Below the pieces are notes generated by a model that did not search any database, was not told where the DNA came from, and saw only the letters and a list, made by a program, of their open reading frames with translations. From Amoebophrya sp. A120 (taxonomy: Eukaryota; Protista; Dinoflagellata), in the NCBI GenBank assembly GCA_905178155.1, contig CAJINV010000006.1, positions 1,613,876-1,677,875 on the forward strand: 64,000 bases of DNA, in the 5' to 3' direction. Shown piece after piece: positions 6,001 through 57,000 of this stretch. Positions within the stretch are counted from its first letter, which is position 1. Each line of letters starts with the position of its first letter. The position numbers and the translations under genes are program-made.

Positions 6001-9000
6001 CGGCGACAAGGGCACGCAGACGCGGACACGGGTGGTGAAACAAGAAGCCGCGAACGGCGGGGAACTGTGCGCCGGCGAAGGGGAGAAGGAGACTCGGGAT
6101 TGTATCAGGTGTAAAAACGTCCCTGCCCCAGAGTTGTCACGCAAGTCTGCATGGTGAAAATAAATGTTTCATGTGGCGCTGGGTGCGGGTGTCCACTACA
6201 TGATGATGATGATGATGCGAAACCCCAACATGAGAAGCATTCTCTAGTAGTGTTTTGGGATTTGTGATGCTCGAAGCAGCATGATGCGCCAGATCTGTGC
6301 TGCTGCTGAAGATCTAGCTAAACAGGATCACACTGCGAGGCCAAACTTGTCTTGCGCAGCAACGAAAGCTGACTGATTTGTCTAGGAGCAGATTCCCCAT
6401 CTTGGCTTTGGGGTGGAGACGTTTATTTTGCACAGGATAAATTGTGCGGAAAACCTGCCGGACTGCGACGCGGACTGCGTGATGAGTCAGTGGCAGGCGT
6501 ACGTATCAAATGCAAAAATCCCTGGACGTCTGGGAGGATGGAACTTGTGATGCGTCCTGTGGGTCACACAAAAATCTGTGTTGCGTGATCACCCAAAGTT
6601 GTTCTTGCTTGTTTGACCAACCTGAGCGGGAGTTTCTCATGCAAAATAGGCATGATGGAGACTTCCACTTCGACTTCGCAGGATCTGTGATGCTAGGTCC
6701 TGCATTCCAGACCTCGCGAGGCATGGAAAATATGCATGACAAAAAATCTGCATTCTTCCAGACCCAAACATTTTTGCATTTGATAGTACGGCGACTGCAG
6801 CCAAACCTGCCGGCGAGTGGGGGCGCCGGCGGGAAGGCAGCAGTTTCGGCGGTCTGTGCTCACGCAGGCAAAGGGGCCAGGCGGGCAGTGTCCAGACGAA
6901 GACGACACGAGGAAAACCGAGGACTGCGCGAACGAACAAACCTGCCCGCCCATGCCGGATTGCGTCTGGACCGAGTGGCAAGCCGACTCGCGGGGGTGCA
7001 GTAAAAGCTGCGGCACCGGTATCGTGAGAAAAATGGTTACAGTGACAAACTCTCATGCAAGACAAGCAAGACAGGCAACCACTGTCATGCAGGAAGCGCG
7101 TCGTGCGAGCCTCATTCCATTCGTGTTTTATTCCCTTATAGTCTACTGCGCATTACAAGTTTTCTTCGCCATTACAAGAGCAGATTTGTGATGCTGAAAT
7201 TCCAACAAATGTGTAACTGTAACACTTTTTTCCACTTGGATAACCGGGGAACAGCGGTACAACCGGCGCATCATCATGGGGGATTGCGAGGGCGGATATC
7301 CTGAGTAAAAACGTCCCCACCTCCCCGGAGTTGTCATGCAAATGTGCAATGACAGGAACTTTTGTAATGCGCAGCTCCATGAATCCAATGGTGTTTTGGA
7401 AAAATTTGTGATGCTGTATTAACAAGATGTGAAAATGGCTTCGTCATGTAACCACTCCCTTGCCAACCAGCACTACACTGCAATGGGAAAGAACTTGTCA
7501 TGCACAGCTCCCAAAAGTTGGAGATTTGTGCTGCTAGATTCCCAAGAACTTGACTCTGGCGTCGTGGGGACGTTTTTGCTTGGGGTAGCGGACAAGAGCT
7601 TGCCAGCACCAAGGTGGAGAACTGCAAGGAGGATCCCTGCCCCTTGAGCTGCGAGGTGGAGCGGGATTGGCAGCCGATCGGAAATTGTTGGACTGGTAGC
7701 TCTTCCATTTGGGGCAACGAGGGCCCTTCGAATTACAATGCTGTTGACAAGTGTGAGGGCTGGGTTATGAACTATCGAAAGGTGATAGGAAGGTGCACAA
7801 CTCCCCCTCCACCACCTCATTTGTCACGCAAAATACCTAATGCTAATCCACCCTTATTTGCCTGTTGGCACTGTTTGATTGCATGACAAGTTCTGGTAGC
7901 CCAAATAGCACTACACTCCAGTGCAACTTTGTCACGCAAAGCCGGCACTCTTGCTGGTGCTTGTATTACCGTTCACGCTATACAACTGAGGGGGAGGGGG
8001 AGTTGTGCACTGTCATAGGTCACGCAAGCGGACCAGCACGCCAATTTGTACAGCGATGACGTGGTGCGGACCTGCGAAGAACTCGCGGAATCGGAACACG
8101 CCCGACTCTATGCAGTGCAAAAGTATCGTACTCGTCGTACTAATTGCGAACATGCATGACAAGTCTTCTCCTAAGGTAAAGCAGCATTATATATAAGGCC
8201 GAGGGAATTTGTATTTGTGATGCTATTTATACTAGGACGCTACTTTTGCAGGTCATAGACTCAAGCAGCCGCAGCAGCAGCGAGATGACCCGTGCCCCTA
8301 CGACGAGACAGAAAGGTGCATCCACTACATGCAGCTGCCCCTTCGGATTCAAAAAGTCGTAAAGTGCCGGGACCCGGCGTTGTGTCCGAAAAAAGACTGC
8401 GTGATGAACGCCTGGGGCCCCTGGGGCGATTGCTCCCACACTTGCGGGGAAGGGGAGAAGAAACGGACCAGGACGGTTAAATCGGAAGCAAAAAACGGAG
8501 GAACCCCCTGCGACGAAATGTCTTATCAAATGCAAAAATGTCTGGGTCTGGGAGAATGGATGTTTGGCATGCTTGTCTGGCATGACTCTTAAATCTGTCA
8601 TGCACGTTACCCAAGAGCCCCATTTTTCTGTGATGCAGAAACGCAGTTTGTCATGCAGAATAGGCAACACCTAGAAGCTGAGAAACTTGTCATGCTGAGC
8701 CAGCACTTGCGGCCTCATCATGAGACGCCACCCAGCATCACAAGTTTCCAGACCCAGACATTTTTACATTTGACAGGTCTAAAGAGCAAACCACGTCGTG
8801 CGAAAACGAACACCACTGTCCAGTTCACTGTGAATGTATGAACTGCAAAAGTATCGTACTCGTAGTATTGCATGCAATACAAATTAGCTCAGCATGACAA
8901 ATGGAATTTCTCATGCTGATTTAGCTTGACAAAGAAATTTGTTTTGCATGACTGCAATTACTACGAGTATGATGCTTTTGCACAGGATAGAATGGAACGA

Positions 9001-15000: not shown

Positions 15001-18000
15001 TGTTGGCCTTATAGCAATACAAATCGACTTGCGTACTCGAATACAGCATCACAAATTTTTTCCATTTCGATATGGCGGGGAGGGGGATTTTTTCCTTTTG
15101 ATCCGCGCGGTTCTCACAGAGGAAACGAAGGATTGCCAGTCAGACCTGCCCAACTGCGATATCGACTGCAAAATGAACGAGTGGCATATGGCGTTCTCAA
15201 ACCGGTTACCTTCTCAACTGTTACATGAATTTGTCATGCAGAACTACCATCATCATCGACGCAATCAAGCTGCTTCGAATGACAAATTTTCGAATGGCTA
15301 AATAGCACCTGAATCTGTGCGAGTTTTGTAATGCTAAATGTGCAGCCTCCCCCCTTTGACTTTTGCTATTCTTGCATCACAAATTCATGTGGTTTCGTTT
15401 GGTTTAGCATCACAAATTCATGTAACAGCTGAGAATGTAACACTTGAGAACGCCATATGGCAGGATGAAGTTGAAGACGGCGACAAATGCCGTTCCCAAG
15501 ACAATCCAAAGAAGGTCGCTACCTGCAAAGAACTATTTCACGAAAAAACTGTCTCATTGTGATGATTTTGCAATACCTGCATCACAAGTTTGTTACACAT
15601 GTGACGCGGAAAACTTGCCATGCGCGCATTTCCCATAGGGGAAAGCACGGTTAAAGATTCAATGTTCTATGCAGGTGTAGCAAGACAAACACTTTGGCGC
15701 TTCGTTCTGTGCATCACAAGTTCACAGTGAAGCAGTTTTTTCCTGCGATAGAAACCGGACAAAAAGTACTACAAAGTGCAGAAGCGCACCGTGAATCGGG
15801 AACCGAGTGGGAGTGGCAAGCAGTGTCCTCCAGTGGATAGTGTGTGCAATTTGAACAATCGGGCCGCAGCAATAACCCGCATATCAAGTGCAAATATGTC
15901 TGGGTCTGGAAGTATACAAACTTGTCATGCAGGATTGCCATGCCCCAGCCCCTAGAGGTCTGCAATGCAGGATCTAGCATGACAGATTCTACAAGGTCTC
16001 CGTCATACCTGTTCTGCATGAGAAACTCCCTCTCATGGTGGTCAGAAAAGGGCAACTTTTGGTGATCTTCACGCAAGACAGATTTTTGTGTGATCCACAG
16101 GATGCATCACAGGTTCCATCTTTCCAGACCCAGACACATTTGCATTTGATAGCGCAGCAAGTGCAGCAACTACCGGATTTACCACGACTACGCCTACTGC
16201 GACACACATTTGTATGGATGTGTCAGGATCGAAATCGACAAAATCGAAAAACTTGTCATGTATAAAATGTTTAACACTGGAGGGCTGTGTTGGGGAGCAG
16301 GCAAATGAGACCGATTGTCAGAGTGTTTAGGGGTATGCAATGTGCTGCCGGACCCGGAGTAGCATGATAGGAGCAGTCCTCTTTGCCCAAACAGCATGAC
16401 AGATTGGATCTGGGTCCTCCCGAAATTTGTCATGTGCCACTTACAAACTGAAGCTCCGCCTGGTATCGTATCGATTTTATGCATTACAAATTTTTTGATT
16501 TGTGCAATTTCGATTCTGACACTTCCATGATTTACCACAATGCAAGCGAGACTGCAAGTTAGAAGACGAGTGGCAGCTTGGGAAGTGTAACTGCGTGACA
16601 CAGGATATCGTTTGTAAAAACGTCCCCACCTCCTCCCCAGAGTTGTATATGCAAATCTGCATGCTGAAAATGTTTCTCATGCGGAGACCCACCATTTTGA
16701 GAAGCAGTCTCTATTGCTGTTTTGCGATTTGTGATACTCGCATTCGCATGGTATGCGTATGCCAGATCTGTGATTTTGCTTCACTAGCTAAACACGATTT
16801 TTACATTGCAAGCCCAGATTTGTCATGCGCAACAACGACCAAAGCTGGTTGATTTATGTAGCAGATTGTACATCTTGACTCTGGGGTGGGGACGACGCTT
16901 TTGCTCAGCATAGAGGAAAGAGAATGGTGGAAGGAAATTCTCCAACATGCCAAGTACGACTATGACATTGCACAACTCCCCCCCTCCCTCCTCCTCAATC
17001 ATTTGTCATGCAAAATACCCAATCCACCCTTCGTGTCTTGGCACTGTTTGCATGACAAGTTCTTGTAGCCCAAATAGCACTACAATCCAGTGGAAATTTG
17101 TCATGCAAAACCGGCACTCTTGCTGATGATGATGATTGCCGTTCATGCTATACGAATGAGGGGGAACAAGGGGAGTTGTGCCCTGTCATAACGGCGGAAA
17201 AGAGTGCAGCACGTATGGGGATAAAGTTCGGAAAAAAGATTCGGAAAATGAGTGGCATCACGACAGGGTCTACAAAACGAACACTACTTGTTCGCAGGCG
17301 GCGCTTGACCAAGATTGCCCGAAGCAGGACTGCGAGGTTTCTGAGTGGAGAGAAGTGAAAACGTGCAAGGACGCCGCGGACTGCATCGAGGAGCACGAGC
17401 CTTCACACAGCAGAAAAAAGGTGATGAAGAAGTTCGAGCGAACGATCCTAAAACAGCCGAGGAACAACGGAACGGAATGCCCGGAGCTGGAAAAATGGGA
17501 AGAGTGCGCGGTGCAGCAGCAGGGCCAGGGGACGGGCGATCTGCCGCTCTATCAAAGTGAAAAAAGCCCCCACCCCATATCGAAAACGGAAGATGCGCGA
17601 ATTTGTGATGCTGTATTTGAGTACACAAATCAACTTGTATTGCTAGAAGGCCAGGAGACGAAGCTGCGGCCTAAATTGCAGGTAATCTGTCATGCTGTTT
17701 CCCACTTCCAGTTGCCTCCTGTCATCCTAAAACTGCAAGGCTTTCCCACGCTAGACAGCACTACAGTCCGCATCTTTTGCCTTCTAGCATCACAAAGCTG
17801 ATTTGTGACCACAAATCTGCATCACAGATTTCCGTTTTGATATGGGGAGGGGGCATTTTTCACTGTAATACGCTCTGCGCCGTCGACTGTCAGGTAGAGG
17901 AGACTTGGCGCGAAACGGACTGCTCGACAACTTGCGGCCCGGGAATATGGAACTGTCAGAATCGAAATTGACAAAGTCGAAAAATTTGTGATGCACAAAA

Positions 18001-24000: not shown

Positions 24001-27000
24001 GAGCCTATTTAGGGTTTGGGGTAGAGCTGCTAAAGGAGCACGACAAAAGCAGTCGTCTGTGCCCAAACAGCATGACAAATTGGATTTTTCCGGTGCTCCG
24101 GAAATTTGTCATGTGCCGCTTGGAAATTAGTCTTCCAACTCGTATCCATTTTATGCATGGCAAATCATTTCAACTTTGTCGATTTCAAACCTGACGCTTC
24201 CATACCACCCGGACGCGAGGCACTACATCAACAATCCTTCACGACAATCCCGTCGGGGACCAGGACACCGTGATCCCCAGACCGACAATCCGCGCCGGAA
24301 GTACACGGAGTGCAGGACCAGCAAATGCCCAGTCGATTGCGAACTTGAGTCGCACTGGAGCACTGTATCCCCTTCGATAGCAGGTCCTGATGCAGCTTCT
24401 TCGGGGTTCTTGCAGAAGTTTGGCGACATCCTATCCTGAGTAAAAACGTACCCACACCAGAGTCAAGATGGGGAATCGGCTAGACAAATCCACAAGTTTT
24501 GTCTGTTTTGCATGACAAATTTGGATTCGTAGTATAGTGCTGCTTGCGCTAGCTCAGCAGCATCACATATCTAGCATACAATGCTGATTGGAGCATGACA
24601 AGTTGCAAAACACGACTAGAAAATGCTTCTCATGGAGCTCCGCATGAGAAACATTTTCAGCATGCAGATTTGCATTACAACTCTGGTGTGGGTACGTTTT
24701 TACTCAGGATACATCCAAGAACGAGGAATCAATGACAAGAACGATCCATGGAAAAATTATCAAAAGTAAAAATGTCTGGGTCTGGAAACTTGTGATGCTG
24801 GGTGGAGTCTCATGATGAGGCTACAGATGCTGGCTCAGCATGACAAGTTTCTGAGCTCCTAGGTGTTGCCTACTCTGCATGACAAACTGCGCTTCTGCAT
24901 CACAGAAAAACGGAGCTCTTGGGTAACGTGCATGACAGATTTAAGAGTCATGCCAGACAAGCATGACAAACATGAATTCTTCCAGACCCAGACATTTTTA
25001 CAGTTGATAAAAATAGCACTTCCGCGATTTATTTTCCGACAGCAGGTGTTGGCGCAGGAGCTTCTTCGACGTTTTTGCAGATGAAGAACTATGTCGACAT
25101 CCAGGAAGGAATCAACCGCGGGCTTTATAATGACGGGGAATGGAACACTGCGGACCCCAACAAGTGGTTCGGGCCCTTCCCTGCGGCGCTGCAGAAAGTG
25201 ATGCGTATGGCGTTCTCAACTGTTACATTCTCAACTGTTACATGAATTTGTGATGCATGAATGGCAAAAGTGGAAGGGGAGAGCTTGAGCGTCTTGCATG
25301 ACAGACTTGGCCCAGATTTAGACGCTGTTTAGCCATTCGAGAATTTGTCATGCGAAGCAGCTTGATCGTCTGGTGGCTCATCGTCATACTGCATGACAAA
25401 TCATGTAACAGTTCAGGATGTATCAATTGAGAGTCCCATAATGCGCGAGGAGTTTGGAAATAACAACGAAAAGTTTGATCTCTATACGGGCGAGACGGAG
25501 CTGTTTTTGCAGGACAATGAGCAGGGCCGCGAAAGCCGCTTTGGGCAATTTCCATACCATGACACCTGGCTGAATCCAAGGGAGCTGAGTGTGTGCGAAC
25601 AAAAGCTTTTTATGCTTGCGTTCAATGCTTACGCCAATGCTCACTTGGATGCCACTCAACCACTGAAAGCGAGTAAAATGGCACAGTATCAAAGTGCGCT
25701 TCAAGGGATCAATACAAAAGAACTGGCCGAGAAGTTCCGCGGCTATATATGGTCTGAAGGCTATTGCAAAAATATGCCTGCCGAATGCAAATATCGGTTG
25801 GGGTGGCGAGAACAGTGCGCGTCCCTCGAACCCGTTCCTGCTCCTGCTCCTGGTCCCACTGCTCCCACCGAAAATGATGTCGACCCCGCCTCGCTTGCGT
25901 CCTGTATTTTGCGAGGAAGTAAGCCGGAGCAGGGTCCGCACGTGTTCGAAATAAACAATGTCAATTACTACTGCCGTTTGAAAGACGAGCGGTACTTCAA
26001 GAAGAAAATTCTGAAAATCAAAACCCACCCCTCCACGGACACGACGCCAAAGGGGAAAGCTTGTCCCGCGAAGCTGTGTGACGAAGAGAACATACTATGG
26101 ATTGTAAAAATGTCTGGGTCTGGAAGGACGCGAACTTGTCATGCTAAGGCTGGATAGTACATGAATTTGTGTTGCATGATTGCCAAAAGGTGTCCACTTT
26201 TGAACAAGTTTAGAGGCAGTTTGTCATGCAGGATATTAGACATGATAGAGACTTCGAAGAATCTGTCATGCTAGGTCCTGCCTTACAGACCTCATGGGGC
26301 ATGGAAAATATGCATGACAAGTTTGCAATCTTCAGACCCAGACATTTTTACATTTGATACATACAAGATTGCGACAAAACCGAGGTGAACGAGTTTCACG
26401 ATTACGCTATCCTGAGTAAAAACGTACCCACACCAGAATTGTAATGCAGATTTGCAAAGACAGGAAGACTTGTAATGCGCATCCGCATGAGAGCCATTTC
26501 CAATCGTGTTTTGGAATTTGTGATGTTGTGAACAGGATGAGCAGATGAATCTGTGACGCGGCTGCACTGGCTAACCTGCACTACATTGCAGAGTGCAACT
26601 GGTCATGCGTGACTCACAAAGCCCCTAGGTTTGTGTTGCAAAATCCCCATCCTGACTCTGGTGTGGGCACGTTTTTACTCAGGATATACGCCGCCTGCGC
26701 GGCCCTCGAACGCTGCTCGCCCAAATGCGCGGCCGAGTTTGGAGAGTATGAGCTAATTCCCACCCCTGATTATGATTGCTTCCGCGGGGGCGGGGATTCA
26801 GATTCATCCACCCGGCCGGTATCCTGCGAAGTAGAGGAAGACGTAGTCGTTATCCTGAGCAAAAACGTCCCCACCCCAGAGTCAAGATGGGGGTATCGCA
26901 ACAGAAGTCGAAAAGTCCTGGGAGTCAAGCATGACAAGTTTCTCTCTGTATTGTCGTGCAGTTTAGCAAGTACAGCCGCAACACAAATCTATCTACTCAT

Positions 27001-30000
27001 CCTGTTTACAGCATTACACAGTCCAAAACACGATAGGAAATGCCTCTCATGGGGATGCGCATTACAAATCTTCCTGTAACTGCAAATCTGCATGACAACT
27101 ATGGGGTGGGGACGTTTTTACTCAGGATAGTCGTCAAAGACGGTGTGATTTTTTCCCTTCACGTAAAGGAGCACAATTACTACAAAATACGTGCACTGAC
27201 AAGCAGCCACGGCGGTGCCACCTGCCCGGTCGACGAGGATAGGGTGTGCAAGGAGGTTATCAAATGCAAAAATGTCTGGGTCTGGAAGAATCCGAACTTG
27301 TGATGCACATTTCAGAACACAGAAAAATCTCTCATGCATGGGTACTAGCAAAAGCTGCCCACTTTCTGTCACCAAAGCGGGGCGACATTTGTCATGGGGA
27401 TTCGGCATTGCGGAAGCTTCTCGAAACCTGTAATGCTAGAGCTTCCATGCCAGACCTTCTGTCTCATGCAAAAACAGCATGACTCTTCCAGACCCAGACA
27501 CTTTTACATTTGATAGAGGTGGTCTTCTTCTTCGGGATGTCGGAAACGCAAAAGAAGGAAAAAGAAGAACAATTATCAAATGTAAGAACTTCTGGGTCTG
27601 GAAGAATGCAAGATTTGTGATGCAGGTTTTCCATGACCCATGAGGTCTGGAATGCGAGACCCAGCATGACAGATTTTTTGAGGTCTCTATCATGCCTTTC
27701 CTGCGTGAGAAACTCCCTCTCAACTAGGTCGAAAGCGGACAGCTTTCGGTACTCACGCAACACAGATGTTTGCATCATTCGGATTTAGGAGCATGACAAG
27801 TTCTAATCCTCCAGACCCCGACATTTTTACATTTGATAACAATGCTATCGAGACCTTCTCTCCGGCATGTACCACGATTTCACCGAGTCGGAAAATTGCG
27901 AGAACCAGCTTCCCCCCTGCCCAAGGGACTGCGTGACTGGGGAGTGGAATCTGCTAAGCGCAGGCGGTAGCAGTCCGGATTCTTCATCGAACACGGCGGA
28001 GCAGCAAGCGGATCAGAACCAAACGACCCCCCCGCCAGAGTCTACGACGAGAAAAAGGCAGCGGCTCGAGTACGGAGGCAGTGCCACGGCGCACTTCGGA
28101 AGGCCCCCGTTGCATCGGATTCCGAATGCCGAAGGGACGTCGTTCACCATGGAGAAGCCTACGCATGCCCTTCCGCCCGGCGCGGACCTGGAGAAAACCA
28201 GAGCGGATTCGCGGTGTCACACCGACTATCAAGTGGAAAAATGTCTGGGTCTACTGGAAGATTGCCAGGTTTGTGGTCATGCATTTTTTGCATAGCCCAT
28301 GATGCCTGCAATGCATGGCCGAGCATCACAGATTTTTAAAGAAGGGCTTTCTGATGCGTATAATTCCGCATGAGAAGCGCCCACTCCTCGTAGCACAAAC
28401 TGAACTCCTCTTGCTGGTCATGCAATACAGATTTTTTTGGAATCCAAATGCAGCATCACAAGTTCGGATTCTTCCAGACCCAGACACTTTTACATTTGAT
28501 ACCGACCAGTGTTTGGACGAGGACGGGAACGACGGGCGACCCGTATCCTGTGCAAAAGTATCCGATACTCGTAGTTGTATTAATCGCAATTATGCATGAC
28601 GAATCTTTTTCTTAAGGTAAAACAGCATTACAAATTCCATTTCTAATGCTGAGGGAATTACTACTTATTTGTGATGCTATAATTTCTACTAGTACGTTAC
28701 TTTTGCAGGAGTTCATAACCCGACGAAGAGGGCAACTGCCGAATCAGGGCCTCCGCGGAGTCTGTAAAAGCCATGGACATGCACCCCCAAGACTTGACGA
28801 CGCCCACGACCGGCGCGGGAACAAGAAGACTACACCTTGGCAGTTTCTGCAAACCCGGATATTGGAATCGCTACGACCACCGGTACATAGACAAGGTCTG
28901 GTTGCAGTACCGGCAGATAGACGAGGTCTGGCACAGCACCTACCATGTCTGTTGCGTCAAGTACCACCCCGCGACTTCTACTGACGGAGAGGACTGCTAT
29001 CGGGAAGCGCATGAAGAGGACCACGCGTCTTCATCCACGACCGGGGAGGAAGGAGCTGCTCCACCTGCTATCCGCGATCTTCATCCGGTGACGTGCAAGA
29101 TCAAAGACGAGGACTACTACAAGATTCGCCAGGTCCAAATCTTAGTGCCGGCGAAACACGTATGGAAGTGTCAGAATCGAAATTGACAAAATCGAGAAGC
29201 TTGTGATGCGCAAAATCGACGCCACTTAGAGCCACAGTTTGTAGTCGGCGCATGACAATAAATTCTCCCCGTCCTGGAAGCGAATCTGTCATGCGGTCTA
29301 AGGAAAAAGAGCTGCCTTCTGTCATGCTAGTCAGCAGCCCAACACTCAAACCCTTACCAGGACGACAAGCCGCCTTCCTTGCATCCTCTGCAATAGAGTC
29401 GCTTTTTGCGTAGCATTTTATGCATTACATTTACAGATCATTTCGATTTTGTCGATTTCGATCCTGACACTCCCATAACACGACGGAAAGAAATGCCCGG
29501 ACAAGGAAGCTTTATGCGACACGAAGCTTTTATTACATCAGAGTACTTCTTCTAACAATAAGAGGAAAGTGGAGGAACTGTGTTTGCAAAAGCACTTCAA
29601 GTTTTACCGCGATTTTCGCGCCGGCGCAGAATGTGGCGACACTAACACCGACACCCTGCCAAACCTGCCGTTTTGCCCGATTGATTGTGTCTTAGAGGAT
29701 TCGTTCACTTCTCTGAAGCCGTCAGATGAAGAGGACTTCCCCGGAGGTGGAGCAACTTCCGGCACCACCTCCAGTGGCACCACGACAAGTTCCACTCCGT
29801 TTGCGCAATGCGTGCGTGACGTAGCAGGACCACCTGGTGAAGATGCCGGCGCGAACAAAGAAACCACGATATCCTGTTTAAAAACGTTCCCACACCGGAG
29901 TCAAGATTGGGAAATCTGCTACACAAATCAACCAGCCTTGGTTGTCTGGCATGACAAGTTTGTCCTCGTTGTGTAAAAATCCTGTTTAGCTAGTTCGGAA

Positions 30001-33000
30001 GCGTCACAGATCTAGCAGAGCATGCTGATTCTAGCATCACAAAGTCCACAACACGAATAGAAAACGCTTCTCATAGGCCTCCGCATGAGAAACATTCTTC
30101 GCATGCAGAATTGCATGACAACTCTGGGGTGGGCACGTTTTTACTCGGGATACACGACAAAAAAGCCCCACGTGAACCGCCTGCACCCGGAGGAAATATC
30201 CTGTGCAAAAGTATCGTACTCGTATTGCAATCATGCAATACAAATATCTTAAGGTAGATTCGCATTACAAATTTTATTTCTCATGCTGCGGAAATTTGTA
30301 ATGCATTTATACGATGAATACGATACTTCTGCAATGCATAGGAAAACGATGCCGACCATTTCTGCAAGAAGCCGAATGAAGAGTACTACGAGCGCAAGGT
30401 TAGAAAGGTGAAAGAAAGCCCGCAACACGGTGGAGCAGAGTGCGCTACGGGGGTTTGTGACGGGAAGAAGAAGGACAGCAGCACCGAGTGCTATTGCAGT
30501 GAAAAGTGCCCCCCACCCCTGAAAGTGCAAAATTTGTGATGCGAAGTTTCCAAATGAAAACTTTCTGTCATGCATGGAAGGAGTATGGATGTTTCTGATG
30601 CAGAGTCTAGGCATGTATCGCATCGCCTGCATGACAAGCGCCGCTCTTGCTGGGGCCTTTTGCAATACAAATTTTTGCTATTCACGATTGAAAACCTGTG
30701 ATGCTGATAGATGCAAGAGCGCGAATGTTTCATTTGGAAAGGTTTGCAATACAAATGCTTTCAAGTTCGGGGGTGGGGGCAATTTTCCTCGCGATAAGTG
30801 CGATCTAGCAACGGACCGGTTCTACAAAGACTACAAGGCCTGTGAGGCGTATGGATGTGTCAGGTTTGAAATTATCGACAAAGTTGAAATAATTTGTAAT
30901 GCATAAAATGGATGCCAGTTGGAACCCAGTTGCCAAGTGGCGCATGACAAATTTCGGTGGTCCCTAAATCCAGTTTGTCATGCTGTTTAGGCAAAGAAGA
31001 GCGATTTTCTCATGCTACTTTAGCAGCTCGATCTGTAACCCCAAACAGGCTGACAATCGGCCTCACTTGCCTGCTCTGCAACACACGTACCTCGGGTCAT
31101 GCATTTTATGCATGCCAAACTATTTCAACTTTGACGATTTCAAACCTGACACATCCATAAGGCGCTGAAGCCCTGCCCCATCGACTGCGAGCTTGGTGCG
31201 GAGTGGATTGTTATCAAATGCAAAAATGTCTGGATCTGGAAGAATGCCAGACTTGTCATGCAGGTTTTCCATGACCCATGAGGTCTGGCATGTAGGACAT
31301 AGCATGACAGATTCTGTGAGAGTTCTATCATGCCTGTCCTGCATGAGAAACTGCCTTTCGATTAGGTCAAAAGTGGACAGCTTTTGGCATATCATGCAAC
31401 ACAGATTTTTACATGATTCAGATTTAGCATGACAGGTGGCGTTGTTCCAGAGGACCCAGACACTTTTGCGCTTGATGATCGTAGGCTATGAGTCAATTTT
31501 CAAAACATCGACGACGTATCTGAGCGAGGAAGAGGCAAGAGGGAAAGCAATGAACGACCGCTGCCGCTCCAGCGCTGTGCAGTGGAGCACGTCGGCGGGT
31601 AGTGCCATCGCCTGCTCCACCATCTGCGACCCTCGTCAGGACGCTATCCTGAGTAAAAACGTACCCACACCAGAGTTGTCATGCAAATCTGCATGCCAAA
31701 AAAGTTCGTCGTCTCTTCCGTGAGAACAAAAACGTAAGGCGTAAAATGGGTCGGGTCCTGGATCGTTCTGTATGTTGGGCTGTCGCGCTCGGCTAGCTGG
31801 CCGGGCTGTACTGATCAGGTGTGGTGGGTAGCTCCCGACTGGTTGGTACTTTTCATGGGGCGACTTGCCGTGGTAGCGCTCGGCTTTTGTATGATGAGGT
31901 CGCCGAAAGTGCTTCCTCGCCCACCCCCCGGGGAGGGGATCCTTGACCTGTGGCGCTGGGAGCGGGTGTCCACTACATGATGATGATGATGATGATGCGG
32001 AGCGCAATGAGAGGCATTTTCTAGTCGTGCTTTGGAATTTGTGATGCTATAATCTGCATGATATACTAGATCTGTGATGCTGCTGAACTACCTAAACAGG
32101 ATTACACTACGAGGAGAAACTTGTCATGCCAAATGACCAAAGCTGGCTGATTTGTCTAGCAGATTTCCCATCTTGACTCTGGTATGGGGACGTTTTTACA
32201 GATGATAGACGCGTGGAGCTGTTTTTTCCAGCCGCAGGGACGAGATAGGGCATTCTCAGACGTCACGTTCTCAGCTCCCATTAAATAAATTTGTCATGCA
32301 AAACCACCATCAAGATTCACACGATCAAGCTGCTTCGCGTGACAAATTTGCGAAGGGCTAAACTGCATGAGGCGTCGAATCTGTAATGCGAGTGCTGCAA
32401 GCATTGCAAACTTCGGCTGTTGCTGCTCTTGCATTGCAAATTCACGTACGTGTTAACAGCTCAGAATGTAAACGTGGTTTGAAAACGCCATAAGAGAGTG
32501 CGCGTGCGTCGATCACGAGGCGGTTTATGCTCCGGACTATAAAATAAATTCAGCTTCTAGCTCAGGCGGAGAAGGAGAACAACCCCGACGGAATAAACAC
32601 AGGGAAAGTACAGATTGCTACAAAGACACAACGGGCAGTACTAGCACCGCGGCAAAAGCAAAAGCAGAAGCGAAGCCGGGGGCTGCTGCTTCCTTTCTGT
32701 CCTTCTGGTTCGCGGCGCCAGCGCCGGAGGGAGGAGGTAGAAGTACGTATGAATTGCAAAAGTGTCTGGGTCTGGAAGAATGCAAGCTTGTCATGCTTAT
32801 CTGGCATGACTCAAGAATCTGTGTTGCATAGGCACGAAAAAAGCCCTCTTACCTGTCATGCAAAAACGCAGTTTGCCATGCAGAATACGTAAGACATGGC
32901 AGCCAAAAAATTTGTCATGCATAGCTGCGAATTCCAGTGCGTCTATCATTCACTTTTAGTATTACAAGCTTCCAGACCCAGACATTTTTGCAATCCATAG

Positions 33001-39000: not shown

Positions 39001-42000
39001 CTGCAAAAGTATCGTACTCGTATAAATGCATTACAAATTTCCTCAGCATGAGAAGGAAAATTTGTAATGCGGATTTACCTTAAGAAAAAGATTTGTAATG
39101 CATGATTGCAATACGAGTGCGATACTTTTGCACAGGATAGGACGGGACGCTGCCCTATTGCAAGATCGACTGCCAAATGGACGAGTGGGGCCCTGCAACG
39201 GACCCGGCGTGCAGCAACAACGTGACGCATAAAGTTGATTACAAGCGCAACAAAACAGTAGAGACAGACCAGGGCGCGTGTCGGAAGGATGAGTCCTTTG
39301 GGCCCGGGTTTGGCTACTACAAAAACCGAACCCGCAAGGTTTTGCATAGAGAAAAGCACGGTGGTATCCTATGTAAAAACGTCCCCACACCATAGTCAAC
39401 AAGATGGGGACTCGGCTAGACAAATCCATAAGTTGTGGCTGTTCTGCATGACAAATCTGGACTCATGTTGCACTGCTGTTTGAGCTAGCTCAGCAGTATC
39501 ACAGATCTAGCGCATCATGCTGATTGGAGCATGACAAATTCCAAAACATGAGTGGAAAATGATTCACATGGGGCTCCGCATGAGAAACCTTGTCAGCATG
39601 CGGATTTGCATGACAACTCTCGGGTCGTGGGGACGTTTTTGCACAGGTTAGGCGGGAAGGCGTGTCCGACCGGGATCTGCCCGGAAAACAACTATGCAAA
39701 GAAAAAAGTTTTACAGTTACACATTGTGATGCAAAACATGCAAGACTTTCCATGCGTCAAATGCTTACGAGTCTAGTTTCGTGTGTGTTTTGCCTTTATA
39801 AACTCTGCATTACAAGTTTTCTTCGTCATGCGAGGCATATTTGTAATGCTGAACTCACTACAAATGTGTCACTGTAACACTTTTTTCGTGGGATAACAAC
39901 GCCTTGAATTCTACTGCAGAGAACTGCGACGCTTATGCAACCTACCGGGACTTTTCCGACGCTGCGGGGTGCGACGGGATGGAAGTCTGCCCGTTGGATT
40001 GCGTTATGGCGGACGAGGGCTGGGAAGACACGGGGCGGTGTGTCCGGAAAGACAATGGGCAGTCCGACTATCCGCATGACGAGGTCCCCGAGGATATCCT
40101 GTGCAAAAACGACGTCCCCAAACCAGAGTCAAGATGGGAAACTTGCTAGACAAATCAACCAGCTTTGGTTGCTTCGCATGACAGGTGTGTCCTCGTAGTG
40201 TAATGCTGTTTAGGTAGTTCAGCAACATCACAGATGTAGCATATCATGCGGATTCTAGCATCACAAACCTCAAAACACCACTAGAAAATGCTTCTCATGG
40301 GTCTCCGCATGAGAAACATTTTCAGCATGCGGATTTGCATTACAACTCTGGGGTGGGGACGTTTTTACTCAGGATAGAGGACCCCGACGCCCCGGGTGCG
40401 GCCAAGCCCTGCCGAAAGGAAAACACGTGGTACTACCGACTACGGACGCGGTATGGAAGCGTCAGAATTGAAATCGTCAAAGTTGAAATACTTTGTGATG
40501 CATAAAATGCTAGACTCAAAGTGCCTCTCTTGCAGAGCAGGCAACTGAGGCCGATTACAATCCTGTTTGGGGTGTGAGATAGAGCTGCTAAAATAGCATG
40601 ACAAAAGCATTCTTCTCTGCCCAAACAGCATGCCAAATTGGATCTCCATGCTGCCAAAATTTGTCATGCGCCACTTGCAAACTGGGCTCCAGCTGGTATC
40701 GCTTTTTTGCATTACAGATTATTTCAACTTTGACGATTTCGATCCTGACACCCCCATACGCGGAAGAGGCTCGTCGAGCCCAACGCCGCCGGTACCCATA
40801 TGGCGTTCTCAACTGTTACATTCTCAACTGTTACATGATTTGTAATGCGAAACAAACATCAACACTCACAAGGTGAAGCTACTTCGCATTACAAATTTTG
40901 GAAAGGCTAAACAGCGCCTAAATCTGTGCGGAATTTGTAATGCTACTGGTGCAACCTACCTGCTTTCACTTTTGCCATTCTTGCATCACAAATCCATGTA
41001 ACAGTTGGGAATGTAACAGTTGAGAACGCCATAACCCAGTGCCCGACAGATACCTGCGCGACAGAGGACTTCAACCCCGCCGACGGAAATTATGCCGACG
41101 TTTCGGAGGCAGTAAAAGAACTCGACAGAAAGTGTGTAGAGCTGGGCGGCAAATCCTATAAAAACTGGTGGGCCTGCGGGGTGAAGGAGACTGACTGCGT
41201 TATCCTGAGTAAAAACGTACCCACCCCAGAGCTGTGATGCAAATCTGCATGCCAAAAAAGTTTCTCATGTGGAGCCGCATGAGAAGCATTTTCTATGCAC
41301 GTTTTGGAATTTGTGATGCTATAATCAGCATGTTGTGCTAGAGCTGTGATGCTGCTGAACTACCTAAACAGGATTACACTACGAGGGCAAACTTGTCATG
41401 CGACACAACCAAAGCTGGCTGATTTGTCTAGCAGATTTCCGATCTTGACTCTGGTGTGGGTACGTTTTTACTCAGGATATGCGCAACGGCCTACTTGGCA
41501 ACGGGTGACTACGCGCAGGCGGGGACCGGGGGGAGGGGCTCGGTCCGAAACTGCGGCAACCTCCTATCCTGTGCAAAAGTATCGTACTCGTAGTAATTGC
41601 ATTTATGCATTTACAAATCTCTTTCTCAAGGTAAATCAGCATTACAAATTCAATTTGTAATGCTGGCGGAATTTGTAATGCAATTTATACTAGTACGATG
41701 CTTTTGCATTGCATACCTCTATCACGGTTGCAGTATTCTGACGGATCATAATAACGGCATTCCCGTAGTGTTCAAGGGCTGCATATCAAGAAGAAAAATC
41801 CCCCCTCCCCATATCAACACGGAAATCTATGTTGCTGTATTTAAGTACACAAATGACAGCTGTCTTGCAGTAAAGGATTGCACGCAGATCGTAAGCCTAG
41901 GGGGGGGGCCTCTTGGTGTAGGGGACTAGCATGGCAGACGTCTGCCCTATAGGCTTGGCAGCGTTCTTACAAATCGCCTGCATATCGTGGCGGGGTCTCT

Positions 42001-54000: not shown

Positions 54001-57000
54001 GAGACGCCACCCAGCATCACAAGTTTCCAGACATCCAGGAATTTTTACATTTGATAGACACAAAGTTTTCCACTTCTCCGAGCTCCGGGAGGTGGAACGA
54101 CGGCGTATGGATTGCAAAAATGTCTGGGTCTGGAAGGTTGGAACTTGTGATGCTAACTTTGGACTCTAAAAAATTCTGTATTGCATGACCAGCAAGAGGA
54201 GTCCGGTTTGTGCTACGCGTGGAGGGCATTTGTCATCGGAGCAGGCATCAGGAAGGCCTCTAAAAATCTGTGATGCTAGGGCTTCCATGACAGACATTCT
54301 GTGTCATGCAAAAAAAGCAATAGGCGTGGGCCTGTAGGCCTAAATTCCGGTCGGTTGGTCGGTTGGTTGGTTGGTTTTGGACAGACGACAACTGACCGAA
54401 CCCGCTGCATTGTGTTTTGTGTTCTTCTGCGATTCGTCTCTTATTACTGTTGAGGCTGCCTACCTACCCACCTACCTGGCGTCTTTTCGATTCATTGTAG
54501 TACCGTGATCGCACCGACCCACCTACCTACCTATCCGCTGCCACCCAGAGACAGCTGCCTACTGGTCACGCCTACCGACCCACCTACCCACCCTCATGGT
54601 GGGTAGGTGGGGCGAGGGAGCGCGCGCTGCCTATTGGCCACGCCTACCGACCTACCGACCCACCAGCCTGGTGGGTGGGTGGGGCGAGGGTGCGCTGCCT
54701 ATTGGCCACACCTACCGACCTACCCACCCACCTCGCTGGTGGGTGGGTGGGGCGAGCAAACGTTGCCTATTGGCCACGCCCACCGATCTACCCACCCACC
54801 GCGCTGGTGGGTGGGTGGGGCGAGCAAACGCTGCCTATTGGCCATGCCCACCGACCTACCCACCCACCGCACTGGTGGGTGGGTGGGTGGGGCGAGCGTG
54901 CGCTGCCCCTTGGCCACGCCTACCGACCTACCCACCCACGAGCCTGGTGGGCGGGTGGGGCGAGCGTGCGCTGCCTATTGGCCACGCCTACCGACCTACC
55001 CACCCACGAGCCTGGTGGGCGGGTGGGGCGAGCGTGCGCTGCCTATTGGCCACGCCTACCGACCTACCCACCCACCTCGCTGGTGGGTGGGTGGGGTGAG
55101 CGTGTGTTGCCTCTTGGCCACGCCTACCGACCTACCCACCCACCTGCCTGGTGGGTGGGTGGAGCGAGCGCGCGCTGCCTATTGGCCACGCCTGCCGAGC
55201 GACCTACCCACCCGCCAGGCAGGTGGGGGTGTGGGGCGAGCGTGCGCTGCCTACTGGCCACGCCTACCGTCCTACCCACCCACCTGCCTGGTGGGGGGCG
55301 GGGCGAGCGTGCGTTGCCTGTTGGCTACGCCTACCGACCTACCCACCCAGCTGCCAAGCGGGGGGGGGCGAGCGGGTGTTGGCTATTGGCCACGCCTACC
55401 GACCTACCAACCCACCTGCCAAGCGGGGGGGGAGGGGGTCGGGCGAGCGTGCGTTGCCTATGGCGCAATTTACTAGCAGGGGGTTTGCAAGCAAGGGACT
55501 CGCGCAGCCAAGGGGTTGCGCAAAAAGCCTCCGCGCGGCATGACCAAGCGGGGGCTGATCCAAATTTATTTTGCGCGAGTTTGTCTCTATTTCCCGAGTG
55601 TGTTTTGCTCGGGTTGAGGAAACACAGGTCGAGGCTGGAGAAAAGTGCAGCTCTGGAGCCCCGGCCTCTTTCGATCTCACAGGCGCAAACTCTCACGAGG
55701 CCCCCCGGAGCTCCGACTGCGTCCACGCAGCACAGATCTGTGTCTGCAGCGAGCTGCGCGCACCACTGATTTGTGTTGCGCGCGTCACAGATTCGCGCCC
55801 ACGCAGCGCAGATTTGTGTCTCCGGCGAGCTGCGCGCAACACAGATTCGTGCGCAACACGCAGCACAGATTTGCGCGCAGCGCCGATTTGTGCTGCGCGC
55901 ACGCAGCGGAGATTTGTGTCTGCGGCGAGCTGCGCGCAGCACAGATTTGTGGTGCGCGCAACACAGAGTTGCGCCCACGCAACACAGATTTGTGTCTGTG
56001 TTGCGTGGACACATCGAAGTCTCCTTCTGCCGAGACCTTTCTGCCGCCCTGGCGGAAGTGCCTACTGGGCGGCGATAGGATGCGGCGCTACCAGCCTCGC
56101 AGGGGCGGGCTGCAGCCCCGGTAGGGAGGCAGGTGCTCCGCGCGCCCCGACCACCCCCCTATCGTGTTTCGCCCTCCTTGCCGTTGCGGTTATCTTCTAA
56201 AGTCAAAACCGATGTGCGTTTTTCCATAATTCGTAAATTCGGTCAGTTGTCGTCTGTCCAAAACCAACCAACCAACCGACCAACCGACCGGAATTTAGGC
56301 CTACAGGCCCACGCCTACTCAAAAAAAGCATAAAAAATTTCGGATTCTTCCAGACCCAGACATTTTTACATTTGATACGGCGGGAGGTGGAACAACCAGG
56401 CGGCCCTGCTGGTTCCTTTCTGCAACAAAGAACGGAGCCACCACTTCTGTCTGAGCCACGAACTTCTGCCGCTGTTGATTCCTTTCTGCAAGCGGAGCCA
56501 CGACGGTCTGAACCAGACGCCGGCCTTTTTTCTTTTTTGCAAGCCACCACAGCAGATGGCGATGGCGCTAAGTTTATCTATCTTGACACGTGGCAAAGCA
56601 AATACGAGTCCTTTGCTTCAAAAAACGAATGGAAGTGGGACGCAGACAACAAAACCGCGAAAGTGACCTTCTACGCTAGAACACCAAGCAGTTCTTCTCC
56701 CACAACAACCCAACTGCAGAAGCATAAAGAAGAGATAGCCAAAATCTTCCGCAAGCTTGACTTTGACAAAGATGAAAAGTTAAGCGAAAAAGAGTACAGC
56801 CGGTTTTTACAAGATCCCGCGTGCAAAAATTTTTGCACCGACGATGCAACAAACAAGCCGCGGCAAAAAAAGCAGCTGCGGAGAATCAGGATTCAGCCGC
56901 AGTACGACGGAACCGCATGTCCGGCTGAGGAGCGGCCAACTGTTTGTAAAGATCCGTCGACGACTCCCGATTTGCCTGTCGGACCCTGTCCCCACGACTG

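Follow-up and report, generated by a model that had tools for sequence, protein, structure and literature searches.

Why should two inserts with a common 3' end and a (TGA)n tail occupy the same position in two copies of one intron-forming repeat, within a single 64,000-nt stretch of the Amoebophrya sp. A120 genome (the window), and do they go back to one insertion carried along by its host or to repeated use of one target? We hold with strong confidence that the insertion is real, independent and repeated, with a strong hotspot in introner subfamily D1. The family sample comprises ten copies, namely the two in the window, which prompted the analysis, and one at each of eight loci found elsewhere (L001–L008). 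The relevant window features are as follows.

31707..31977, + strand: 5'-truncated retroposon body, 271 nt, with 97.0–99.6% identity to the 3' ends of the longer copies L002, L004, L006 and L008
31978..31997, + strand: (TGA)6 tail followed by TG, the ATG at 31995–31997 being common to tail and host target
31645..32207, + strand: host introner, subfamily D1, with TAT...ATA ends, terminal inverted repeats (TIRs) matching at 19/24 positions and a perfect 5-bp duplication
31640..31644, + strand: left copy of the host target duplication GACGC (right copy at 32208–32212)
6172..6200, + strand: second, shorter retroposon body, 29 nt, with T at a variable position
6201..6217, + strand: (TGA)5 tail followed by TG, running into the D1 position used by the 31707 insert
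6103..6439, + strand: host introner, subfamily D1, with TIRs matching at 13/24 positions and a duplication matching at 4/5
41201..41479, + strand: empty D1 sister, its target inside an internal palindrome at 41261–41291
16606..16912, + strand: empty D1 sister with an intact TTTCTCATGCGGAG at 16673–16686

The two inserts do share a 3' end, as the original prediction held: the same 29-mer has exactly two matches in the window (6172–6200 and 31949–31977, both on the + strand; two matches occurred in 0/100 shuffles) and is followed by (TGA)6 in the 31707 insert and (TGA)5 in the 6172 insert. The lengths predicted, about 290 and 46 bp, differ as stated, the bodies themselves, tail excluded, being 271 and 29 nt. 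In each case the tail continues into the host at ATG^CG, so that the claim of one host site, empty in sister copies, holds; the sister near 41271 is indeed empty there, but its sequence at 41261–41274 is TTTCTCATGTGGAG and not one ending in CGGAG. Both hosts are copies of one TIR family of about 279 bp, in which the 6103 host is not the sister of the 31645 host (their 3' halves are 81% identical). The 5' junction of the 31707 insert follows host AAAAAAGTT, with 4 host bases missing relative to the empty sisters, the 6172 insert has lost 2 host bases on its 5' side by the same comparison, and neither has a target duplication. Precise removal of the 31645..32207 host leaves one open frame of the six, on the + strand.

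For the most part the window is a single gene region on the + strand; it has thrombospondin-type repeats (Pfam TSP1) and is interrupted by many repeats of 150–330 bp; repeated sequence makes up 60% of the window. These repeats have TAT...ATA ends, TIRs and a 5-bp target duplication, which is perfect in 57 of the 82 scored elements, the duplication being itself part of the boundary score. Of the 46 window elements flanked by 250 nt or more, 34 give an open frame once the element and one duplication are precisely removed, as against 22 and 22 in the other phases. An A120 introner, as defined in the part of PMC7789003 compared, is an inverted repeat with TAT, seven variable bases and at least three A, bordered by a direct repeat of 3–5 nt; the window repeats, whose inverted repeats start with TAT, seven bases and an A run and which carry a direct repeat, have this form. 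Judged by sequence, the hosts are a match to the published Amoebophrya A120-type introners. An initial reading of TA as the host target duplication was dropped, the 5-bp duplication outside TA...TA fitting better. Throughout the window several unrelated-looking introner families (for example at 1354–1616, 24432–24711 and 29161–29477) have the TAT...ATA ends, some with TAG, and the 5-bp duplication outside TA, and this common pair of features may point to one mobilizing transposase. A D1 copy at 40095–40376 has one end like the TIR of a 150-bp family (TATCCTGTGCAAAA), possibly a hybrid end, and GC-rich tandem repeats unlike introners lie at 54500–56200, flanked by introner-rich coding stretches.

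What kind of element is the passenger? A metagenome collection, scanned once for a 21-nt pattern that covers the beginning of the tail, yielded the eight loci L001–L008, all from WGS prefix JACKZZ01 and carrying the introner families of the window; the pattern had no match in the genome-contig and viral-contig collections. The ten bodies measure 29, 30, 31, 98, 171, 271, >432, 473, 561 and 2263 nt, and all ten end in the 29-mer followed by (TGA)3–6, eight of them having been found by a pattern that contains the tail start. The nine visible 5' junctions are all different, one copy being cut by a contig end. The longest copy, L008 (2263 nt), begins with TTTTGGCTCAAG directly after a duplicated target of 5–6 bp; this is the final 12 nt of the spliced leader of dinoflagellates (DinoSL) as printed in the section of PMC7245778 compared. 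The 12-mer occurs once in 150,981 bases, in L008 only, and its chance occurrence at a junction is about 4e-7, so that a spliced-leader end at this place indicates an RNA intermediate. Variable 5' ends, a fixed tail, target duplications in 3/10 copies and the leader relic in the longest copy thus agree with the non-LTR type of retroposition that had been proposed.

We detected no reverse transcriptase or endonuclease in the element or in its loci: the longest frame in the 2.3-kb L008 copy has 161 aa, no Pfam reverse transcriptase family is present in 19 of its frames, and a reverse transcriptase motif is likewise absent. Since the longest copy lacks such a frame, the element is likely to be non-autonomous, and we infer that its RNA is trans-spliced like an mRNA; the 5' 1.7 kb is represented by L008 alone and, as the single copy longer than 561 nt, this part with its leader could be a captured transcript and not the true head of the family. 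ARAGORN found no tRNA gene in the L008 copy, and an Rfam search of it gave one match under the cutoff (E 0.58) and no tRNA-, 5S- or 7SL-derived head. A hammerhead-like ATGATGAG...CGAAA was rejected for want of an Rfam match and, by eye, of a stem I, and the fold of the insert is not unusual (z −0.04 to 0.7). L008:3198–3668 holds an open frame of 157 codons where other copies show three stops, possibly the remnant of a coding ancestor; it has no relative among longer proteins and no usable Atlas match, its matches being its own gene call and one unrelated bacterial surface protein (E 6e-4). Three of the ten copies end within 2 nt of one point (bodies of 29–31 nt: window 6172, L003:1577 and L007:7987, numbered with the element on the + strand) and sit in three different host families; this common stop is possibly a reverse-transcription pause, or else a separate mini-element. 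A (TGA)4 at 17124, tried as a tail-only insertion, is by eye a degenerate stretch of that host family.

In sequencing run X1, which may be the source sample, unique exons are covered without differences at depth 21–28, and the summed depth over the insert, which is not equal to copy number, climbs from about 860 close to the 5' end to about 10,000 close to the tail; such a slope agrees with truncation and suggests a copy number well above ten. At the position of window 31961, about two thirds of the summed X1 depth (27 contigs) has T, as in the 6172 copy, and the JACKZZ01 copies have A (8/8); the T-carrying copies would be an abundant subfamily, or a partner with the same 3' end, absent among L001–L008. 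Run X5, taken by guess to be RNA, contains an element contig of 234 nt at depth 276 and does not cover the unique exons, a faint hint of transcription of the element. The reads of runs X10 and X11 that were placed fall on repeats, and among the RNA reads none crosses either splice. In one X5 contig the tail runs into a flank unlike any in the window stretch compared.

A rival reading takes the copies for truncated retrocopies of one cellular non-coding RNA or mRNA that happens to end in (UGA)n, and not for a self-propagating family. A fixed tandem tail that overlaps its target is a LINE-type 3' end, and such an end is what the copies resemble, with a tail–target overlap of at least 2 nt at 5/6 distinct 3' sites (P = 0.003, the target of L006 being counted from its flank). 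They have no poly(A), and the variants among them, 94–99.6% alike with shared substitutions, are as expected from several source copies. Considering these points we regard a cellular transcript as very unlikely to be the source, even though the 2.3-kb copy is without a mobility gene and a Pol III head and leader-bearing retrocopies are common in dinoflagellates according to the parts of PMC7245778 and PMC3942190 compared.

Is the shared position inherited? Within the window family D has 21 copies in two subfamilies, and both window carriers belong to D1, which is defined by TTTCTCATGCGGAG, the left arm of an internal palindrome. L001, L002 and L005 are inserted at the same D1 base, which with the window copies makes 5/10 copies (3/8 of the new ones), and the 3' junction is identical to the base in all five. 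One ancestral D1 insertion, followed by internal deletions and by re-mobilization or gene conversion of the carrier, would explain why all five carriers are D1. On a tree of 32 D hosts, built without the inserts and without the truncated copy W37456, four changes are required to account for the five carriers; placing them in one clade costs 106.8 log units (p-AU 5.35e-5) and is seen in 0% of 200 bootstrap trees, and the two window carriers are likewise rejected as a clade (p-AU 0.037). The hosts of L001 and L002 are sisters (94/96), and for the three hosts of L001, L002 and L005 a common clade is not rejected (p-AU 0.065). Hitchhiking may account for single carrier pairs. The inserts are 97–99.6% alike and their hosts 79–92% alike, that is, 1–3 differences over 98–271 nt as against 18–39 of about 210, and are less diverged than the hosts in all six pairs that can be compared over 98 nt or more (p ≤ 0.006 for each; the four pairs with the 29-nt copy are weaker, p 0.02–0.08), as much younger inserts would be. 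Also against a single origin stand the 5' junctions, of which there are four different ones, none more than 5 bases from the target, and the presence of the element in three other introner families. Since the hosts do not form one clade, the inserts are more alike than the hosts and every 5' junction is different, we reject one ancestral insertion, which is largely refuted and which we regard as highly improbable. The original prediction named one clade with a shared junction as its refutation, and the outcome was the opposite; the comparison of hosts and inserts points to at least four, and probably five, independent events at one D1 base.

How strict, then, is the target? Leaving out the two window copies, the D1 hotspot (3/8) has P = 3e-7 under a null in which any TG, GA or AT site in repeats is equal, and P = 7e-5 if L001 and L002 are counted once (2/7). 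Set beside the measure in PMC4494074, more than 20% of flanks in one repeat as given in the part compared, the D1 share is 3/8 out of sample and 5/10 overall. The element is not confined to family D, five of ten copies being elsewhere, and the match of the tail's ATG with the CATGC/GATGC motif of the introner, named in the original prediction, does not explain the hotspot: there are 75 empty YTTCTCATG motifs in 151 kb, most of them outside D1, and none of the ten copies is at those other motifs. Since these motifs are unused, the target preference must be longer than the nonamer. The L003 host is of the GTGCACAACTCCC family, the L004 host of the TATGGCGTTCTC family, L007 and L008 are at two different places in the commonest introner family, and L006 has its 5' flank in L003's family, near L003's base, and is bordered on the 3' side by calpain coding sequence. 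Four non-D1 copies are thus fully inside three other introner families and a fifth has one flank in an introner, so that D1 is a strong hotspot and not a dedicated site. Overall the tail junction is in an introner in 9/10 copies and at least one flank in 10/10; the calpain flank and that of the X5 contig indicate that some junctions lie outside introners.

The D1 copies with a visible 5' end (n=4) have lost 2, 2, 4 and 5 host bases relative to empty sisters; L003 has lost about 15 bp of target, and L004, L007 and L008 have target duplications of 2–8, 2–9 and 5–6 bp, given as ranges where tail or body overlaps the target (L002 and L006 were not readable for either). At L003:1500–1577, with the element on the + strand, the 5' junction is complex, a stretch of about 26 bp of host sequence upstream of it being duplicated. 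At L006:453–1013 the insert replaces the right half of the host introner and adjoins the calpain coding sequence; by eye, the frame would be preserved by a GT...AG intron that runs from GTGCAC to TGATGCAG, and this copy is either a real deletion with splice rescue or an assembly chimera. Deletion without duplication in 4/4 readable D1 copies, as opposed to duplications in 3/5 non-D copies, also fits capture at breaks, and the D1 site lies within a strong internal hairpin (z = −4.8; equally stable in 0/200 shuffles). It might therefore be that sequence preference is weak, that insertions in exons are purged, and that breaks at D1, a fragile palindrome, capture element RNA without a partner endonuclease. 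The introner excess outside D1 is modest enough for this and may reflect survival: 4/5 tails of the non-D copies are in introners, with P = 0.026 on A120 figures of 17% introner and 40.6% coding (a 29% non-coding share) and P = 0.19 if half of non-coding DNA is introner. Purging of exon insertions, however, cannot create a single-base hotspot. Moreover ATG is available in the right arm too, the palindrome being symmetric, yet the left arm is used in 5/5 copies, in one orientation and with the same 3' junction to the base, and neither arm is occupied in the five intact antisense D1 copies of the window. We consider capture at breaks unlikely, and argue for endonuclease-directed insertion.

All ten copies are sense to the host gene, eight clearly (both window copies, L001, L003, L004, L006, L007 and L008; 8/8, p = 0.008) and two probably (L002 and L005). 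The genes concerned include one with a methyltransferase-like motif by eye (L001), topoisomerase II (L004), calpain (L006) and a CWC25-like gene (L008; E 3e-4, below the Pfam cutoff); at L007 a TMEM144 frame lies upstream, and a frame of about the same length is open on the antisense strand too. Empty D1 copies occur in both orientations, 4 sense and 7 antisense by hand count (Fisher 0.034), and within the window alone intact D1 sites are filled in 2/3 sense and 0/5 antisense copies (p 0.11). The bias would mean either that insertion is tied to transcription or that purging removes antisense copies; read on the reverse strand, the element's last 30 nt contain, by eye, a pyrimidine run ending in CAG, which could act as a false acceptor. 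Human L1 has an orientation bias opposite to this sense bias in the part of PMC5717806 compared. Removing host and passenger precisely leaves frames of 978 aa (L001), 808 aa (L004), 501 aa (L003) and 253 aa (L007), and also restores frames at L008 and at both window sites; L005 has no long spliced frame (94 aa). The 'spliced-out safe harbour' originally envisaged is supported at the level of reading frames only. Since host TIRs and exon frames are intact, the passenger would exit the pre-mRNA together with its host introner.

Taken as a whole, the element is probably a non-autonomous non-LTR retroposon whose independent insertions into TIR introners are directed by an endonuclease, and which would be spliced out with the host. 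Its RNA would be trans-spliced like an mRNA and would likely be inserted by target-primed reverse transcription, an unseen partner LINE supplying the enzyme. The endonuclease of this partner may nick the template strand of the gene and would favour the left arm of the D1 palindrome (TTTCTC^ATGCGGAG) strongly but loosely. The (UGA)n tail may then pair with 1–3 target bases (ATG, TG or TGA) and prime a synthesis that would mostly stop early, and joining of the second strand would lose 2–5 bases at D1 and duplicate 2–9 bases elsewhere. A further step, tentative and in our view rather unlikely, is that the element is a promoterless introner hyperparasite, steered into the sense orientation, transcribed in host pre-mRNA, excised with the introner, and freed and capped by spliced-leader trans-splicing; if true, host transcription, non-canonical splicing and the leader would replace the promoter and ribozyme of other site-specific retroelements. 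Introners are a main proposed source of new introns, and those of Amoebophrya include non-canonical ones. The insertions in genes such as those for topoisomerase II and a CWC25-like splicing factor are natural insertion mutants of introners, and continued splicing of a 270-bp introner with a 2.3-kb insert in its middle, or its failure upon loss of one end (L006), would directly test models of end pairing.

R2 and similar site-specific elements, which ride on the transcripts of their hosts, have a fixed 3' junction, a small target deletion and one orientation relative to host transcription. The A120 element shares these three traits; it differs in that its target is a mobile intron and not rDNA, that no ribozyme was found (Rfam) and that its specificity is loose. 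In the parts compared of PMC7789003 and PMC12130899 the A120 introners begin with TAT, about seven bases and an A run and have short direct repeats, as our hosts do, and the host lengths of 150–330 bp are those of A120 families in PMC12130899 (20 of 58 A120 rows); both papers record non-LTR elements in the A120 genome, and their compared parts make no mention of a retroposon lodged at a fixed position within introners. Nested hotspots are frequent in human repeats (PMC2836564, part compared). In the literature searched we found no report of an introner-targeting retroposon; figures, some supplements, subscription papers and Repbase could hold the family. As far as these searches reach, the intron-forming host in coding exons, the alveolate setting, the leader-bearing non-coding element and the sense bias are new. 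Like the relic-spliced-leader retrocopies of dinoflagellates, the genomic copy starts with the 3' end of the leader (PMC7245778, PMC3942190, parts compared), but those are copies of genes; the A120 element is non-coding and multi-copy, ends in a (TGA)n tail and has a target hotspot.

The part of PMC4494074 compared describes retroposons whose targets are non-autonomous DNA transposons, namely Tx1L in Tx1D of Xenopus and SINEU-3/Tx1-Mar in Mariner-N4_AMi of crocodilians, and the A120 element would extend this group from vertebrates to alveolates. Tx1L, as cited there, is likewise a non-LTR element that targets a single site of a non-autonomous DNA transposon; it is autonomous, and its clade, Tx1, is given as an animal one, whereas no enzyme was found for the A120 element, which for that reason we do not file in the Tx1 clade. 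The closer likeness is to SINEU-3/Tx1-Mar, in which a non-autonomous retroposon also repeatedly enters a non-autonomous DNA transposon, truncated copies likewise exclude hitchhiking, and related families use other sites more weakly (PMC4494074). SINEU-3/Tx1-Mar has a snRNA-derived head, an expected 16-nt duplication and 90% of copies on target; the A120 element has a spliced-leader relic as its head, on-target deletions of 2–5 bp and 38–50% of copies on target, and its host interrupts coding exons, whereas the SINEU-3 host is not described as intron-forming in the part of that paper compared.
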